This document shows, piece by piece, positions 840 to 41,219 of a stretch of DNA of 64,000 nucleotides. The DNA is from an archaeon (GTDB lineage: Archaea; Iainarchaeota; Iainarchaeia; Iainarchaeales; JAAZKV01). Position numbers and translations under genes: made by a program. The notes beneath the pieces were generated by a model. The model was not told the DNA's origin, did no database searches, and worked only from the letters and a program-made list of their open reading frames with translations. Each line of letters starts with the position of its first letter. Within the stretch, counting starts at the first letter, position 1. Location of the stretch: assembly GCA_041664905.1 (NCBI GenBank), contig JBAYJX010000003.1, positions 537 through 64,536 on the forward strand, written 5' to 3'.

Positions 840-912
840 GGGCCCGTAGCTCAGTCGGTAGAGCACTGGACTTTTAATCCAGGTGTCTAGGGTTCGATTC
901 CCTACGGGCTCG
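840..912 (+). tRNA. tRNA-Lys(UUU)
   Basis: Hand-folded cloverleaf: acceptor GGGCCCG/CGGGCTC, anticodon stem CTGGA/TCCAG, loop CTTTTAA, T-arm TAGGG-TTCGATT-CCCTA. No encoded CCA. Confidence 0.9.
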
Positions 913-941
913 CTCATTATCTTTTTTTATTTTTTGTTTTT

Positions 942-1051
942 GGGAATGCGCTATCAAACAATGTTTGATGGACGCCCACGCAAACCTATTGGTTTGCTAG
1001 GGCAACACCTTTAGTGAAAGGGGTTGCGAGTTAGTTGTCTACGGGCTCGCT
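942..1051 (+). repeat. tRNA-Lys-linked structured element, copy 1 (possible ncRNA or miniature integrated element)
   Basis: 110 nt, near-identical to 1852..1960. Four predicted hairpins. Its last 13 nt (1039..1051, ctacgggctcgct) repeat the tRNA 3' end at 902..914. T-runs on both sides. Confidence 0.6.
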
Positions 1052-1100
1052 TTTGTTCTTAAGAAAGTTTTATATCTAAGAAAGTTCTTTTAGTAGATTT

Positions 1101-1712
1101 ATGCCAGTTTTAATTAATTTCAAAATTTGTGATAATGCTTCTGAATGTAATGGTGCAGCGATTTGTCATACTCATGCAATTAGCTGGGATGAAAAAAATA
1201 AAACTCTTGTTATTGATAATTCTAAGTGTATTTCTTGTGGTAAGTGTGTACCTACTTGTATGGTTGATGCAATTAAAGTTGCTAAAACTCAAACAAAATT
1301 TGAGAAAATAAAAAAAGAATTTGATAAAGATAAGCGAAAGATTTCTGATTTGTTTGTTGATAGGTACGGTGCGCAAGCCTTGCATCGAGCATTTATAATT
1401 AATGAAGCTAAGTTTGATATTGAAGTTGAAAAATATCCTCGTTTGGTTGTAGCTGAATTATTTAATGATCAGTCAATAGTTTGTTTATATTGTTCTATTC
1501 CAATTAAGGATTTGTTTCCTAAGATGGACATTAAGTATAGGAAAGTTGCCATCTCGGATAACTTTCTTCTTGATAAGTTTGGTGTAAAGACGCTTCCAGC
1601 GTTAGTGTTTTTCAATGATGGAAAGTTTTTAGGTAAAGTTGAAGGGGCTTTTCCTCCTGAAAAGCAGAGTGAGCTTTCTAGTCTTATTTCTAAAATCTTG
1701 AAGAAAAAGTAG
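1101..1712 (+). CDS. 4Fe-4S ferredoxin domain fused to a thioredoxin-like domain
   Basis: N-terminal 'CISCGKCVPTC' (CxxCxxCxxxC) plus additional Cys residues. C-terminal thioredoxin-like pattern with 'CLYC' and 'LPALVFFNDGKFLGKVEG'. Confidence 0.6.
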   Translation: MPVLINFKICDNASECNGAAICHTHAISWDEKNKTLVIDNSKCISCGKCVPTCMVDAIKVAKTQTKFEKIKKEFDKDKRKISDLFVDRYGAQALHRAFIINEAKFDIEVEKYPRLVVAELFNDQSIVCLYCSIPIKDLFPKMDIKYRKVAISDNFLLDKFGVKTLPALVFFNDGKFLGKVEGAFPPEKQSELSSLISKILKKK

Positions 1713-1758
1713 TTTCCCTAACGCTTTTAAATTCTCTTTTTGCATTATTCTATTAAGT

Positions 1759-1831
1759 GGGCCCGTAGCTCAGTCGGTAGAGCACCAGACTCTTAATCTG
1801 GGTGTCTAGGGTTCGATTCCCTACGGGCTCG
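1759..1831 (+). tRNA. tRNA-Lys(CUU)
   Basis: Acceptor, D-arm and T-arm identical to the tRNA at 840..912. Anticodon stem CCAGA/TCTGG, loop CTCTTAA. Confidence 0.9.
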
Positions 1832-1851
1832 CTTTTTTTGTTTTTATTTTT

Positions 1852-1960
1852 GGGAATGCGCTATCAAACAATGTTTGATGGACGCCCACGCAAACCTATT
1901 GGTTTGCTAGGGCAATACCTTTATGAAAGGGATTGCGGGTTAGTTATCTACGGGCTCGCT
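1852..1960 (+). repeat. tRNA-Lys-linked structured element, copy 2
   Basis: 109 nt. The first 64 nt are identical to copy 1; five differences lie in hairpins 3 and 4. Ends (1948..1960) with the same 13-nt tRNA 3'-end repeat found at 1821..1833. Confidence 0.6.
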
Positions 1961-2043
1961 TTTTTTGTTATAAATTTTATCTTCTTTTTTGTGCTTTTGG
2001 GCGATATTAAAAAGCTTTTCATACCAATTTTTATTATTAGCCA

Positions 2044-2117
2044 GGGATTGTAGCTCAGCCTGGGAGAGCACAACGCTGAAGACGTTGGTGTCGCGAGTTC
2101 AAATCTCGCCAATCCCA
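2044..2117 (+). tRNA. tRNA-Phe(GAA)
   Basis: Acceptor GGGATTG/CAATCCC, anticodon stem CAACG/CGTTG, loop CTGAAGA, T-arm GCGAG-TTCAAAT-CTCGC. Confidence 0.9.
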
Positions 2118-4284: not shown

Positions 4285-6060
4285 TTAGATTCTTTCTGCC
4301 GCTTGAACAGAGGGTATTTCTTCAATTTTTTCTAATAATCTCTCAAGTTTTGCAACTCCGTTAATCTCTATTCCAAATATTGCTTCAGCATACCCATTTT
4401 TTTTGATTTTGAAATTTGTGTTAATCAGTGTTGCTCCTGATTTTTTTATTTCAGTTAGTATTTCGGATAGTATTCCTGGTCTATCAATTGCTTTTACTCT
4501 AATTTCAGTTTTTCCTTTTTCTCTTTCAAATCCTATGCTGATTAATTTGTCTTTGCTTATTTTTTTTATGTTTGGGCAAGTAGTTTTGTGTACAATTATT
4601 TTTCTTTTTGTAGTTTTTACCCCTATTACATCTTCTCCTGGTAAGGGGTGGCAGCACTCAGCCATTTTAATTTTTTTCAAAGCCCCTATTTGTGGTGCTT
4701 TTTCTTTTTTTTGCATATTTACTTTTAATCCGAAATAAGTTTTGATTTTTTGTTTTGCTTTGTCAGTAACAACAAACCCTAACCAAGTTTTTTTGAGTTG
4801 TGGTTTTTCTGCCACAATTATTTCTACTTGGTCTAAGTTGTTTAGTTTTGTTTCTAGTGGGGCAAAATTTCCATTTACTCTTGCTTTTTCCATTTTCTTT
4901 CCAATATCTGTGTGTACAGCATATGCAAAATCAATTACACTTGCGCCTATGGGGAGCGATATCACATCGTGTTTTGGAGTAAAAACAAATATTCGTCGTC
5001 CTACACTTTTTTTGCCAAACACTTCTTTTCCTAGGGATTTTTGCCATTCAATTAATTGTCTTTCCCAACCTAATTCTTTTTCGAATTCTTTGTCTTTTTG
5101 AATTTGTTTATAATTCCAATAAGTTTCTCCTTCAATTCTTAAATGGTGTTCCCAAGTCCTTATTTGGATTTCAATAACCTCGTTTCCTCGTCTTACTGCT
5201 GTGTGTATGCTTTTGTATCCTGTATTTTTTGGTTTTGAAATATAATCATCAAATGCTTCTGGAATTATTTCATATTTTGAGTGAATGTACCCTAGTGTTT
5301 CATAGCATTCTTTTTCTTTGTTACAAATTATTCTTATTCCATAAATATCATTCATTTTTGAGAATGGGGTTTTTTTAAGTTTTTCAAAAATTGATTTAAA
5401 GTTTTTTGGTCTTCCCGTAACTTTTACTTGAATTTTTCCAACTAATAGGGATTCAATTTCTTTTTGTACGGTTTCTACAAGTGCTTCTCTTTCTATTCTT
5501 GTTTTGTTTACTAATTTTTTTACTTTCTCAAACCCGGCGGGATTTAGAACTCTAAAACTGTAATCTTGTATTTTCCAAGCGGATTCACCCAGTCCAAGTT
5601 TTGTTGCAAGGGGATAATAAATTTCTTCTGCTTTTTTCGCATAATTATCTTCAGAAATAAATTTTTCTTTGTTGTATAATGCATCAGCAATTTCGGCAGT
5701 TTTTATTATTATGGGCTGAAAAGTTTGGGATATGGATAATATTATTGAAGTTAGGGTCTCACTTGGTAGTTTACCAAAGTTTCTTTCTATGATGTCTTCT
5801 ATTTGTTTTATTGTTTTAACATTTTGTGTTGTTGTTTCTCCAAATAATTGGGTAATTTCATTTTCATTAATTAAATTATTGGGGAGTTCTTTTAGGATTG
5901 TGGCATTTATTGCTTCAATTGGCAAATTTTTTTCAAATAGTTCTTCGGCGACTCGTTTGTTTCTTTCAAAATTAGTTTGTCCTGTTTTTTCTTTTAAATA
6001 ATTTGTGGCATTAGTAATTGTTTTAATTTTTTCCTTGGCATTAACTTCACTAGTAACCAT
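4285..6060 (-). CDS. RelA/SpoT homolog: (p)ppGpp synthetase domain + TGS + ACT, with a degenerate His-free N-terminal region
   Basis: Synthetase motifs 'GRPKNFKSIFEKL', 'DIYGIRIIC', 'DYISKPKNTGYKSIHT', 'EIQIRTWEHH'. TGS-like 'IFVFTPKHDVISLPIGASVIDFAYAVH'. ACT-like C-terminus. Confidence 0.8.
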   Translation of the reverse strand: MVTSEVNAKEKIKTITNATNYLKEKTGQTNFERNKRVAEELFEKNLPIEAINATILKELPNNLINENEITQLFGETTTQNVKTIKQIEDIIERNFGKLPSETLTSIILSISQTFQPIIIKTAEIADALYNKEKFISEDNYAKKAEEIYYPLATKLGLGESAWKIQDYSFRVLNPAGFEKVKKLVNKTRIEREALVETVQKEIESLLVGKIQVKVTGRPKNFKSIFEKLKKTPFSKMNDIYGIRIICNKEKECYETLGYIHSKYEIIPEAFDDYISKPKNTGYKSIHTAVRRGNEVIEIQIRTWEHHLRIEGETYWNYKQIQKDKEFEKELGWERQLIEWQKSLGKEVFGKKSVGRRIFVFTPKHDVISLPIGASVIDFAYAVHTDIGKKMEKARVNGNFAPLETKLNNLDQVEIIVAEKPQLKKTWLGFVVTDKAKQKIKTYFGLKVNMQKKEKAPQIGALKKIKMAECCHPLPGEDVIGVKTTKRKIIVHKTTCPNIKKISKDKLISIGFEREKGKTEIRVKAIDRPGILSEILTEIKKSGATLINTNFKIKKNGYAEAIFGIEINGVAKLERLLEKIEEIPSVQAAERI

Positions 6061-29074: not shown

Positions 29075-32000
29075 TTATCTTAACCTAAACTTTTTTTGTC
29101 CTTTTTTTCCTTGCATTTGTCTTAACATATCTCCGATTCCTTTTTCTCCAAAGTTTTTCATTGCTTTTTCACTTTGAATGTTTTTAAATTTTTTAAACAT
29201 TTTTTTCATTTGTTTGTATTGTTTTATTAGTTCTCGTACATCTTCAATCTTTGCTCCCGCCCCTTTTGCAATTCTTTCTAATCTGTTTCTGTTCAGCACT
29301 TCGGGATCTATTCTTTCTTGTTCTGTCATTGAATCAATTATTACTTTGAATGAATCCATTTTGTCTTGGCCTGCTTCTAGCATTTCTTTTGGTAGTTTTA
29401 CACTTAACCCAAGCATTTCAGCTACTTTGTTTAGTGGTCCCATTTTTTTTGTTGCTTTTAGTTGTTCATAAAACATTCTTAAATTAAAATTTCCTTTCAT
29501 GAGTTCTTCCGGATCAAGGTTTTCCATTTCTGCTTCTTTTGCTTTTTCTAGTAATCCTTGTAAATCTCCATAACCCATGATTCGCGACAAATATCTATTA
29601 GCATCAAAGGACTCAAATTCGTTAAGTTTTTCTCCAACTGAGATAAAGTATACGCTAGCACCAGTTTCGTTGCATGCAACAAGTGCTCCTCCTCCTTTTG
29701 ATGATCCATCCATTCTTGTAATTATTACTCCGTTTATTCCTACTGCGTTGTGGAATGCTTGGGCTTGTTTTTTTGCCAAGTTTCCCATATCTGCTCCAAT
29801 AACGAGCCACTTTTCTTCACTTGCAAATGCTTTGTCAATTTCTTGTATTTCGCTAACTAGGTCACTATCAAGTCCGCTTCTTCCTGCTGAGTCGCAAATA
29901 ATTAAATCGCACCCTTTCCCTGTAAGTTCTTTTATTCCAGCTTTAATTATTTTTTCTGGTTTTGTTTCGCCTTTTATTCCAAAGAAATCTGCTCCGGCAA
30001 GTTTTGCATTTGTTTGTAATTGTTCAAATGCAGCTGGTCGGAATGTATCTGCACAAATCACTCCTACTTTTTTTTCTCGTTTTGTGTAATAGTGTGCAAG
30101 TTTTCCTGCTGCAGTAGTATTGTGAACGATAATGTGGTTTGCCACAAAGTTATGGTAATCTTCTACTGTTAGATCATAAACATATTCTGTATTGTCCACA
30201 ATTTCAATTTTCTTTATTTTTATCCATGCGATTTCAGCGGTTGCGAGTTTTTCAAGTTGTGTGAGTTTTGTTTGGTCAAAGGATTGAACAGTTTTGATTA
30301 GTTGCATTCCATTAGTGGTTATTTGTGCTAATCCATTATTTTGTTTTATTAAGTTTAGTTCTTCTAATCTGCAAATATTTGCAGTAACCCAGCCCAAAGG
30401 TTCATTTAATTTTTCTGCTAGTTGTTTTGAGCTTGTTTCTTCAAAAGTTGCGCGTAGTAATTCTTCGTTTTTATTTTTCGTTTTTGTTAGTGCAATTAGA
30501 AAGTTTTGTAATGCATTTCTTGAAATTAATCCTTCGTTTTCATATGTTCCGTACGAGCTTACATATTTTTGTATTTCTCCTATTGTGGTGCCATAATATT
30601 CTCGCACTTCTTTTAATCTTGGCCCAACATGAAGCATTTCTTGTTTTCCATAAGTTTGTCCCTCTCCCACGCTTGCCATTTGAGTTAATCTCTGTTGTTT
30701 AAACTCTGTCTTTGAACCAATTTCTTTTGCAAAAAGTTCAACGTCTTTTGCCTTCAGGAAGACTCTAAAGTAATCTTTTTCCTTTATTTTGCGTTTGGAA
30801 AAACTTGGCACAAGGTCAAAACTTGATAGCAGTACTCTTAGGTCTTCAGCCATCATTTTGCTTGCAGTGCAAAATTCAATGCTTCGTTTACCTTTCGCTA
30901 TGTATCCATCGCAATCAAAGTATGCCTGGAGAAAGGTAATTTTAGTTTCTTTATTTGCTTGAAGTATTTGTTTTGGGATTCTTATTTTGTCACTTTTTTT
31001 GTTAAATGGTGCCCCGAAAGCAGAGTTTATGAATTGGGTCAATATGATTGAACCGAAAATAACTTTTTTTAGATTTTTGGTGCGGATGTCTTTTTTGACA
31101 CTTGGTTTTAGGTTAAATAGGTTTTCTCCGAGAATGGTTATTCTTTCGATTAGGGCGTCTTCTTCGTTTACTATTTCGAGATACTTTTTTGTCAGGTGTC
31201 CATCGGCATAAAAGTAACCTAAAAACTCGGCTAACTCTGGGGTCATGCATAAGGGAAGTGTAATTTTTCTTGCTCCACTGTTTGCTTTTCCTGCAACAAT
31301 TTTTTCTTCAGGGTTATATGTATAACCTAAAGAAATTATTTTTTTCAACGTTGTTTGCCTTATTATTCCGGACTTTAAGTTTGAAGTAAAAGTTATGTAA
31401 GAATAATTTTCATTCAGGATTGTGAAGGCGTTGTGTAGTGTAATGTAATTTGTTTTTAAGTAATTAGTTATTTCTTTACAGATTTTTAAATCATTAATTT
31501 GTAAATCTTCGCTTATTATGTAACCTAATCTTGGCGAGTTTTCTTCGCTGGATTCAATTGTTATTTTTCTAGGGGTTGCGATAAACTGCCCGAGCTTTAT
31601 TGCTTCAGCCTTTATTTTTTTTACTTCCGAGTTTTCCAGAACAAAAAATGGGTGTTCTGGGGTGGTGGTGATGTGGTGGTTATTTCCATTGTCAAGTGTG
31701 ATTTTATAGAGTGGCTGATCTTTTTTTAATTTCCACAAATGGGTTGCTTTTGATTTTATTATTTTCATGCTTATGGGGTCCCACGAAAAGACGTCAACTG
31801 GTTTTGATAATTCATTTGCAAAACCATCTTCTAAAGAAAGTTCTGTTTCTTGATTTTTATCATACAGCTCTTTTATTGTTTGTATTTCTCCGCTTGGGGT
31901 TGGCACAATAGTTTCTGGGTGCACACATTTCCCTGCCCCAAATAATCCACATAGTAGTATTCTTTTTGGATTCTCGGGGGTTTTTTGTCCACCCAGCATT

Positions 32001-32242
32001 TCTACTAGTGCATCGTAAGTAACTTTTGTAATGTGTTCTCTTCGAGACAAAGTCCCTTTTATTTCTCCGAAAGCGTTTTCTTCTATTTTTTTAGAAATAG
32101 TAAATACTGTTGTTGTATCAACGTTTGCAGAAATTAGTGCTCTTTGGATTTCTTTTATTGCTTCTTTTACTGTTTCTTTGTCTACTATTCCTGCGCCTTG
32201 GATTTTGTCCATTGCTTTTCGTAGTGTTTCTCCTAAACCCAT
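29075..32242 (-). CDS. srp54: signal recognition particle protein SRP54, intein-containing
   Basis: N domain, then G domain 'LLCGLFGAGK|intein|TTAAGKLAHYY', 'DTFRPAA' and 'DSAGR', then M domain. AGGTG lies upstream of the ATG at 32242. Confidence 0.9.
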   Translation of the reverse strand: MGLGETLRKAMDKIQGAGIVDKETVKEAIKEIQRALISANVDTTTVFTISKKIEENAFGEIKGTLSRREHITKVTYDALVEMLGGQKTPENPKRILLCGLFGAGKCVHPETIVPTPSGEIQTIKELYDKNQETELSLEDGFANELSKPVDVFSWDPISMKIIKSKATHLWKLKKDQPLYKITLDNGNNHHITTTPEHPFFVLENSEVKKIKAEAIKLGQFIATPRKITIESSEENSPRLGYIISEDLQINDLKICKEITNYLKTNYITLHNAFTILNENYSYITFTSNLKSGIIRQTTLKKIISLGYTYNPEEKIVAGKANSGARKITLPLCMTPELAEFLGYFYADGHLTKKYLEIVNEEDALIERITILGENLFNLKPSVKKDIRTKNLKKVIFGSIILTQFINSAFGAPFNKKSDKIRIPKQILQANKETKITFLQAYFDCDGYIAKGKRSIEFCTASKMMAEDLRVLLSSFDLVPSFSKRKIKEKDYFRVFLKAKDVELFAKEIGSKTEFKQQRLTQMASVGEGQTYGKQEMLHVGPRLKEVREYYGTTIGEIQKYVSSYGTYENEGLISRNALQNFLIALTKTKNKNEELLRATFEETSSKQLAEKLNEPLGWVTANICRLEELNLIKQNNGLAQITTNGMQLIKTVQSFDQTKLTQLEKLATAEIAWIKIKKIEIVDNTEYVYDLTVEDYHNFVANHIIVHNTTAAGKLAHYYTKREKKVGVICADTFRPAAFEQLQTNAKLAGADFFGIKGETKPEKIIKAGIKELTGKGCDLIICDSAGRSGLDSDLVSEIQEIDKAFASEEKWLVIGADMGNLAKKQAQAFHNAVGINGVIITRMDGSSKGGGALVACNETGASVYFISVGEKLNEFESFDANRYLSRIMGYGDLQGLLEKAKEAEMENLDPEELMKGNFNLRMFYEQLKATKKMGPLNKVAEMLGLSVKLPKEMLEAGQDKMDSFKVIIDSMTEQERIDPEVLNRNRLERIAKGAGAKIEDVRELIKQYKQMKKMFKKFKNIQSEKAMKNFGEKGIGDMLRQMQGKKGQKKFRLR
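30119..31927 (-). mobile_element. intein (603 aa) with LAGLIDADG homing endonuclease, inserted in the SRP54 P-loop
   Basis: Starts 'CVHPETIV' with block B 'TTPEHPF'. Ends 'YVYDLTVEDYHNFVANHIIVHN' before the +1 Thr. LAGLIDADG 'LAEFLGYFYADGHL' and 'FLQAYFDCDGYI'. 108 + 603 + 347 aa = 1058 aa. Confidence 0.9.
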
Positions 32243-32382
32243 TATTTGCACCTATATAGATAGTGTTTTGCGAATAACTTTAAACGCTTTGGTTTAGCCT
32301 AAATAAATATCTCGTTTATGGGTAGTAGTTGCTTTTACATATGCTTTTAAATCTTTAAATCTATTTTAGTTTAGGTGATTTT

Positions 32383-41078: not shown

Positions 41079-41219
41079 TGCGCCCACGGGGATTTGAACC
41101 CCGACAAAAAGCTAACCTCAGCTACTCGCTTTCTATCCCTTCAACGAAGGGATAAATTCTTTCGCGAGCCTTAGTTAAGGCTCTGGAAGGCTTTTATGCT
41201 ACCATTACATCATAGACGC
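41079..41219 (-). tRNA. tRNA-Gly(UCC) with a 70-nt intron at position 37/38
   Basis: Minus strand: acceptor GCGTCTA/TGGGCGC, D-arm ATGT-AATGGTA-GCAT, anticodon stem AAAGC/GCTTT, loop C-T-TCC-A|intron|A, T-arm CGGGG-TTCAAAT-CCCCG. 141 nt in total. Confidence 0.75.

Follow-up and report, generated by a model that had tools for sequence, protein, structure and literature searches.

The 64,000-nucleotide (nt) window analyzed here stems from the chromosome of a DPANN-type archaeon with a low GC content (34%) and carries, behind each of its two tRNA-Lys genes, one copy of a folded sequence of 92 to 93 nt. This sequence is probably a miniature insertion element, non-coding, non-autonomous and site-specific, with mobilization in trans and duplication of the tRNA sequence at which it inserts. 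Insertion with duplication of the target is indicated by the presence or absence of the element at three loci, by a tail that follows the local tRNA, by a constant orientation and by a target motif shared among the occupied genes. This reading stands against an attachment (att) site borne by the element, and equally against a segmental duplication or an RNA gene passed on by vertical descent.

Copies of the element and their tRNA sites

Two near-identical stretches at 942-1051 and 1852-1960, already pointed out in an earlier note on this DNA, agree over their first 64 nt and then diverge at five places, namely C>T, an indel of one nt, G>A, A>G and G>A. As that note described, each is located 3' of a tRNA-Lys gene after a T-rich spacer and ends in the 13-mer CTACGGGCTCGCT, a repeat of the tRNA end. 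The spacers measure 27 and 18 nt, counted from the 13-mer, and the 13-mer occurs at exactly four sites in the 64 kb (902, 1039, 1821 and 1948), with none expected from shuffled sequences. The repeat of the second copy extends beyond the 13-mer and amounts to 22 nt, CTACGGGCTCGCTTTTTTTGTT. The core of copy 2 was 95.7% identical to that of copy 1, and the spacers of both copies could be aligned, the remaining flanks being unrelated. The two sites consist of the following parts.

840..913 (+): tRNA-Lys(UUU), intact, the target gene of site 1; its T-arm is GGGTTCGATTCCC (ARAGORN; Rfam tRNA, 72.5 bits)
902..914 (+): left direct repeat of site 1, CTACGGGCTCGCT (tRNA positions 63-73 plus two trailer nt)
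915..941 (+): T-rich spacer of site 1, with TTTT at the end next to the core
942..1034 (+): element core copy 1, 93 nt, GGGAATGCGC...GCGAGTTAG (alignment A3; covariance model R1, 114.5 bits)
951-971 (+): hairpin 1 of copy 1 (948-975 with its GCG/CGC extension)
974-1003 (+): hairpin 2 of copy 1, including the outer GCCC/GGGC stem
1004-1025 (+): hairpin 3 of copy 1
1035..1038 (+): four variable nt between core and repeat at site 1, TTGT
1039..1051 (+): right direct repeat of site 1
1759..1832 (+): tRNA-Lys(CUU), intact, the target gene of site 2; its T-arm equals that of site 1 (ARAGORN, Rfam)
1821..1842 (+): left direct repeat of site 2, 22 nt, CTACGGGCTCGCTTTTTTTGTT
1843..1851 (+): T-rich spacer of site 2, TTTATTTTT
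1852..1943 (+): element core copy 2, 92 nt (model R1, 118 bits)
1861-1881, 1884-1913 and 1914-1934 (+): hairpins 1, 2 and 3 of copy 2
1944..1947 (+): four variable nt at site 2, TTAT
1948..1969 (+): right direct repeat of site 2, 22 nt

Further copies were sought by pattern scans with exact anchors of 21-22 bases, which covered 185,579 species genomes (one per species) and metagenome contigs of the Joint Genome Institute (JGI); since exact anchors were required, diverged relatives are missed by these scans. One match was obtained among the species genomes, in the archaeon ADurb.Bin336 (Candidatus Iainarchaeum, as a neighbouring protein is labelled), where the copy lies 3' of an intron-containing tRNA-Thr(UGU) (contigs L006 and L020-L025). 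The tail of this copy, CCACTAAGGCT followed by a T-run, equals the 3' end of its own tRNA-Thr minus one G. The metagenome scan gave one true match of five, contig L009, the other four (L007, L008, L010 and L011) being chance matches in high-GC DNA. Here, as on contig L018, the copy follows a tRNA-Arg(UCU) after 11 nt, and its tail, CCTCCAGGCCCGTA, is the tRNA-Arg end plus two trailer bases. The window organism probably carries at least three copies, since L018 and the window contig both belong to assembly ERZ27249449 and both have a GC content of 34%.

Four occupied tRNAs are known: Lys-UUU, Lys-CUU, Arg-UCU and Thr-UGU. The earlier note had proposed a mini-integrative element aimed at the 3' half of tRNA-Lys. 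Its description of a small insert without coding capacity, bracketed by a repeat of a tRNA 3' end, stands, but the target does not, as copies are not always found beside tRNA-Lys and those behind tRNA-Arg(UCU) and tRNA-Thr(UGU) have repeats matching each of these genes.

The order of parts was the same in all copies: the intact tRNA, which includes the left repeat, a T-rich spacer, the core, four to five non-conserved nt, the right repeat and the original flank. With the repeats removed, the spacer measures 9-27 nt and ends in TTTT before the core in every copy. T7-T8 runs lie between tRNA and element in three of the four copies, whereas the tRNA-Arg copy has only a T4 and no long T-run. The core, GGGRATGCGC ... 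GCGRGTTAG, is 90-93 nt long and contains no open reading frame (ORF). The nt between core and right repeat read TTGT, TTAT, ACAA and GTATA across the four copies. The bracketed insert amounts to 110-135 nt, and the element was on the tRNA strand in every copy.

The repeats proved to be derived from the target. Their left boundary is at tRNA position 62 or 63 in every copy, while the right boundary lies 2, 11, 2 and ~18 nt past the discriminator, which results in repeats of 13, 22, 14 and ~29 nt. Further, the window and Arg cores are 93-96% identical, yet their repeats differ completely (CTACGGGCTCGCT for Lys vs. CCTCCAGGCCCGTA for Arg); window-type and Iainarchaeum-type cores are 83% identical. 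Because it changes to match each tRNA, the repeat behaves as a duplicated target, unlike an attL/attR core, which would stay constant and travel with the element. The attL/attR footprint seen in the earlier note is not in agreement with a repeat that follows the local tRNA and whose lengths are unlike those of a classical integrase core.

Empty counterparts were found for the occupied sites, and the element is thus polymorphic at three loci. Empty tRNA-Lys sites, which the earlier note had suggested looking for, are present on three long contigs of relatives (L001-L003), where tRNA-Lys genes nearly identical to those of the window are followed by a T-run and unrelated sequence; model R1 gave no match at these tRNA-Lys loci. 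The T-run after 1039..1051 in the window corresponds to the one located directly 3' of the tRNA in such empty sites (compared with L001). At the Arg locus, contig L014, from the same JGI sample as L001, has tRNA-Arg(UCU) before the same downstream gene and no element; its flank downstream of the tRNA can be aligned with what follows the repeat in L009. At the Thr locus, a sister species of Bin336 (eight contigs, L026-L033; neighbour protein 82% identical) has the T-run and the shared flank directly after tRNA-Thr. At both the Arg and the Thr loci, the sequence after the right repeat is homologous to the sequence directly after the tRNA in the empty sites.

The T-arm GGGTTCGAWTCCC is common to all four occupied tRNAs. 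On the element-bearing contigs, none of the six tRNAs with other T-arms (Phe, Gly, Val, an intron-containing tRNA, Leu and Ser) was occupied, and every occurrence of GGGTTCGAWTCCC was. This association (4/4 vs. 0/6, few cases) is suggestive of a preference of the element for tRNAs with this T-arm.

When model R1 was run with filters off, no further or degenerate copy was detected in the window or in related loci. A weak match (E = 0.56) at 41125-41192, inside a tRNA intron, was judged to be noise. The tRNA gene concerned, at 41079-41219 (-), contains an intron of ~67 nt (Rfam, 48.8 bits) and has, by eye, the anticodon UCC. Contig L019 (1-77) begins inside the element at model position 17, as would be expected if the element is a repeat at which assemblies break.

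Some additional features were observed at the tRNA loci described above. Beside the same downstream gene as in the Arg locus, contigs L012 (2300-2395) and L016 (1438-1545) carry tRNA-Arg(UCU) inverted and with an intron, where ARAGORN misses it. Just upstream of tRNA-Lys(CUU), a conserved GGTAATTAC / AGTAATTAC repeat pair is present on L001 (3856-3890), L002 (3872-3905) and L003 (3828-3860) and not in the window. At the Thr locus, a strain variant of the element (L024, 2419-2508, -) has TT in place of GG on the 3' side of hairpin 3, two adjacent changes that break the stem, together with shorter T-runs; the contig has a coverage of only 3.5x, and the changes may be an assembly error. A second insert, of 188 nt and unrelated to the element, lies upstream of this tRNA-Thr (L006, 2431-2672, -; also on L020-L025) and contains three hairpins as well as a direct repeat of 39 nt. 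In front of this insert stands a duplicated tRNA-Thr promoter region plus tRNA nt 1-18, which mirrors the geometry of the element; the sister species lacks the insert.

Selection on the structure of the core

Both window copies folded better than shuffled sequences (z = -4.1 and -4.4 on the + strand), and the + strand was more stable than the - strand. The earlier note had drawn four hairpins by eye. RNAalifold recovered hairpins 1-3, including the GCG/CGC extension, but hairpin 4 was not conserved. The latter (GCGAG...CTCGC) forms in the window and Arg copies and is impossible in the Iainarchaeum copy, because its 3' strand is the tRNA-derived repeat, which changes with the tRNA. With regard to the structured non-coding RNA linked to tRNA that the note had offered as an alternative, hairpins 1-3 and selection on structure hold, while hairpin 4 is merely the tRNA-derived tail.

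The C-G to T-A change in hairpin 3 that had been reported between the window copies was confirmed. Once copies from other genomes were added to the alignment, covariation amounted to three compensatory pairs, two of them in hairpin 1 (C-G to U-A, A-U to G-C) and one in hairpin 3 (C-G to U-A). Variation was found in 11 of the 12 hairpin-loop columns vs. 2 of the 26 junction and terminal columns (Fisher p = 7e-7). Among the 56 stem columns, eight varied, six of which make up the three compensatory pairs. Judged by this pattern of variation, the core is under selection for structure.

Two other pairings were considered and rejected. A closing stem (positions 4-10 with 85-91), which would give a cloverleaf-like four-way junction, is part of the minimum-energy fold of the Iainarchaeum copy; it showed no covariation and was 2-5 kcal/mol worse in the other copies. 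Pairing of the 5' GGGAAU of the element with the AUUCCC of the T-arm is perfect in the window, and no covariation was observed for it in the Thr copy.

Proposed insertion process and alternative explanations

We propose that the element inserts a few bases downstream of tRNA genes with T-arm GGGTTCGAWTCCC, on the strand of the tRNA. Its three hairpins and invariant junctions would be recognized, as folded single-stranded DNA or as RNA, by a trans-acting enzyme encoded elsewhere. One strand would be cut at a fixed place beside the T-arm and the other at a variable distance downstream, in a scheme that resembles the one of Cas1/casposase. The target would then be duplicated from the 3' strand of the T-stem (position 62/63) through the 3' strand of the acceptor and the discriminator and on for 2-19 nt of the trailer. 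As a result, the tRNA would stay intact upstream, and a copy of its tail together with the original T-run terminator would end up behind the element, which may be silent or else transcribed by read-through starting at the tRNA promoter. The sequences themselves show polymorphic insertion, repeats taken from the target, the link with the T-arm and selection on structure, while we infer that the element moves in trans, that an enzyme encoded elsewhere acts on it and what kind of intermediate (DNA or RNA) is used; a DNA-level nuclease or integrase is more likely than an RNA intermediate.

Searches for known families and enzymes were negative. In Rfam, there was no match on the element at the gathering score, nor at E values up to 10 on 900-2000 except for unrelated noise. 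The window has 68 ORFs of at least 100 amino acids, 36 of which were scanned; no transposase, integrase or reverse-transcriptase domain was detected in these or in the scanned ORFs beside the L006 and L009 copies, and there was no cas1 or polB domain among the scanned window ORFs and flanks. Neither three exact-pattern scans of viral contigs nor BLAST against phage and plasmid records gave a match. Terminal inverted repeats are lacking, the left end TTTTGGGAATGCGC being unrelated to the reverse complement of the right end CTAACYCGCAAC. We found no account of such an element in the literature.

Several known classes were also considered and discarded. C/D or H/ACA small RNAs, hammerhead or twister ribozymes, IS110 bridge RNA and split or permuted tRNAs were rejected by eye. 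Integron attC sites and a TnpB/Cas12-type guide RNA were likewise discarded by eye. The GTTRRRY motif of the former fits only two of the four copies, and there is no single long hairpin. The latter would combine a scaffold with a 3' guide that matches the tRNA; it lacks an effector here and would require a matching tRNA end on the element itself. Palindrome-associated elements derived from IS200/IS605 insert 3' of a short motif without target duplication, whereas a 13-29-nt duplication is found at every copy. An archaeal tRNA intron lies inside the tRNA, at a bulge-helix-bulge; the element follows the complete tRNA and, in three of the four copies, long T-runs.

A number of points weigh against a mobile element. 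Only four independent insertions in two lineages are known, and each collection scan (species genomes and JGI metagenomes) gave one further true match, so that mobility is deduced from presence and absence and not from many copies. Neither an autonomous partner nor a candidate enzyme was found in the 64-kb window plus flanks, and the hallmarks of any known transposition chemistry (inverted termini, fixed duplication length, constant att core) are missing. Further, the strong conservation of junction bases would equally fit a functional RNA. That the Arg contig comes from the same genome as the window is likely, though unproven. Finally, since both tRNA-Lys genes share their 3' halves, the two window copies (W1 and W2) could derive from each other by recombination and not from two insertions.

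Free loops, covarying stems and invariant junctions are indeed the pattern of a functional structured RNA, and it is conceivable, though unlikely, that the element is a stand-alone small RNA gene riding on tRNA transcription, co-transcribed, released by tRNA 3' processing, with a cellular function and patchy gain and loss. A tRNA-like tail plus a U-run would then provide 3'-end formation. In line with this, folding is better on the + strand, which uses a U-G pair, than on the - strand. The element also shares the strand of its tRNA in every copy and stops in front of a T-run, and co-transcription is plausible for the Arg copy, located 11 nt from its tRNA with a T4 run only. However, a mobile element fits better than a housekeeping RNA because sister species lack the sequence at all three loci, several copies occur in one assembly, and the Arg copy has no room for a promoter. 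Moreover, a functional tail would have no reason to equal the tail of the neighbouring tRNA, to enter its trailer and to vary in length. The T7-T8 runs in three of the four copies should stop the archaeal polymerase, and neither a TATA-like box at about -26 of the element nor any other clear promoter is evident. One strain variant has two adjacent stem-breaking changes, and no Rfam family matches. The small-RNA and mobile readings are not fully exclusive, as the folded core may be what the mobilizing enzyme binds.

The T-loop is a known crossover region, and the repeat starts beside it. Partial repeats of tRNA 3' ends around inserts are, in addition, the standard footprint of integrative elements in archaea, e.g., that of PYG1 (PMC9897764). 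We nevertheless consider it very improbable that the copies are relics of a virus or plasmid integrated by a tyrosine recombinase (attL plus attR), from which all but ~110 nt beside attR was later deleted. Independent decay would not yield the same 92-nt core with the same ends at four sites, and an element-borne att core should be constant, whereas cores 93-96% identical stand behind wholly different Lys and Arg repeats. The repeat length ranges from 13 to ~29 nt, the scanned flanking ORFs contain no integrase gene or fragment, and viral contigs and phage or plasmid records gave no match. Other observations would suit a retroposon-like insertion, in which the element RNA is copied at a nick at tRNA position 62/63 by target-primed reverse transcription and a second, variable nick produces a variable duplication. 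These are a duplication of variable length with one fixed boundary, the 4-5 non-conserved nt at the junction beside this boundary, a low-complexity stretch of variable length at the other junction, selection on a folded single strand and an orientation equal to that of the host gene, which R2-type elements, co-transcribed with their target, also share. Such an origin seems highly doubtful, however, as there is no reverse transcriptase among the scanned ORFs of window and flanks and we know of no such elements in archaea. Transcripts of three of the four copies would be cut off by the T-runs, and they would include the tail of the former tRNA, although no such tail appears at other sites; 5'-truncated copies are absent among the few known. 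As for the earlier suggestion that the window pair represents only a recent segmental duplication of tRNA-Lys plus flank, the 95.7% identity, the alignable spacers and the shared 3' halves of both tRNA-Lys genes would agree with it. It is almost certainly wrong, already refuted by cores behind tRNA-Arg and tRNA-Thr, each with its own tail, on another contig and in another lineage; a protein gene also lies between the window copies, and their flanks are otherwise unrelated.

Returning to the site-specific insertion element, its geometry appears closest to casposase/Cas1 integration by analogy, though without the casposon's own features. At the tRNA-Pro of Aciduliprofundum boonei, the casposon site comprises a recognition segment covering the T-loop and an adjacent duplicated segment of 15 bp, which overlaps the tRNA by 5 bp (PMC5137440). 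The element is likewise inserted at a tRNA 3' end, with T-arm GGGTTCGAWTCCC immediately upstream of a duplicated segment of 13-14 nt or longer: two sites have 13-14 nt, where ~14-15 bp would be expected of a casposon, and the other two have 22 and ~29 nt. In contrast, casposons are large, encode cas1 and polB and have terminal inverted repeats, whereas the element has 92 nt, no ORF and no inverted termini, and its duplication overlaps the tRNA by 11-12 nt and varies in length.

Prokaryotic miniature inverted-repeat transposable elements and further miniature transposable elements of the non-autonomous kind are similarly small, non-coding, structured, multi-copy and polymorphic between close relatives, with direct repeats of the target. 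Unlike them, the element has no terminal inverted repeats, its target duplication is long and variable (13, 22, 14 and ~29 nt), and it occurs strictly in one orientation and at a single sort of target, the 3' ends of tRNAs that share a T-arm. R2-type site-specific retroelements without long terminal repeats, together with their derivatives resembling short interspersed nuclear elements (SINEs), have no promoter of their own, structured RNA ends, one precise and one variable junction, and a variable target duplication. The element resembles them in its orientation with the host RNA gene, its variable duplication and its non-conserved junction bases. They are, however, eukaryotic and require a reverse transcriptase/endonuclease, none of which was found in the window or flanks, and nothing shows an RNA intermediate here. 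Finally, as in integrative elements that target tRNA genes, an intact tRNA lies on one side and a partial 3' copy on the other (PMC9897764); PYG1 of Pyrococcus yayanosii, for instance, is bracketed by 44-bp repeats (PMC9897764). The differences are that no integrase was found here, that the insert is 100-130 nt and not kilobases, and that the repeats are target-supplied, shorter and variable in length around a constant core.

DPANN archaea have tiny genomes and few recognized mobile elements. An element of 92 nt that locates tRNA genes through the T-arm, keeps them intact and copies their tail would be a new type of site-specific genome parasite, and it gives a handle on its mobilizing enzyme, for which a Cas1 relative, a novel nuclease/integrase or a reverse transcriptase are candidates. 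It is a long shot, but the enzyme might read the tRNA T-arm and use a folded single-stranded intermediate, in which case the element would represent a class of archaeal site-specific elements so far unknown. In the radical version of this idea, the intermediate would be RNA, copied by target-primed reverse transcription at a nick in the tRNA gene; if true, this would make the element the first SINE-like retroposon of Archaea. The structural alignment and the model are now ready for wider searches. The element also explains short tRNA-tail fragments beside tRNA genes in such genomes, which can mislead tRNA annotation.

Gene neighbourhood of the window copies

The window encodes the archaeal signal recognition particle (SRP) RNA (Rfam) and, among housekeeping genes, RadA, SRP54, FtsY, TGT, SHMT and NrdD. 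The closest relatives of the proteins around the element come from uncultured archaea labelled Woesearchaeota, Aenigmatarchaeota, Diapherotrites and similar, and contigs L004 and L005 represent the same strain as the window. The two window copies are separated by a Fer4-thioredoxin-like gene, homologues of which, 66-71% identical, are present on L001-L003. The neighbourhood common to these three contigs consists of Trm56, two tRNA-Lys genes, the Fer4-thioredoxin-like gene, tRNA-Phe, KaiC-like, CARDB and RelA/SpoT. Gene order differs in one respect: L001-L003 have tRNA-Lys(UUU), tRNA-Lys(CUU) and then the Fer4-thioredoxin-like gene, while in the window (840-2117) this gene lies between both tRNA-Lys genes.

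Between Trm56 and tRNA-Lys(UUU), the window contains an ORF of 244 amino acids (27-761, +), and L001-L003 have no gene at this place. The ORF was considered as a partner protein of the element and rejected, since neither Pfam nor PHROG gave a match and none of the other copies has a homologue of the ORF nearby. Elsewhere in the window, the SRP54 gene (29075-32251, -) is split by an intein with a LAGLIDADG endonuclease domain. An archaeal RelA/SpoT-type protein with HD, RelA_SpoT, TGS and ACT domains is encoded at 4285-6060 (-) and is found in the same place in relatives.

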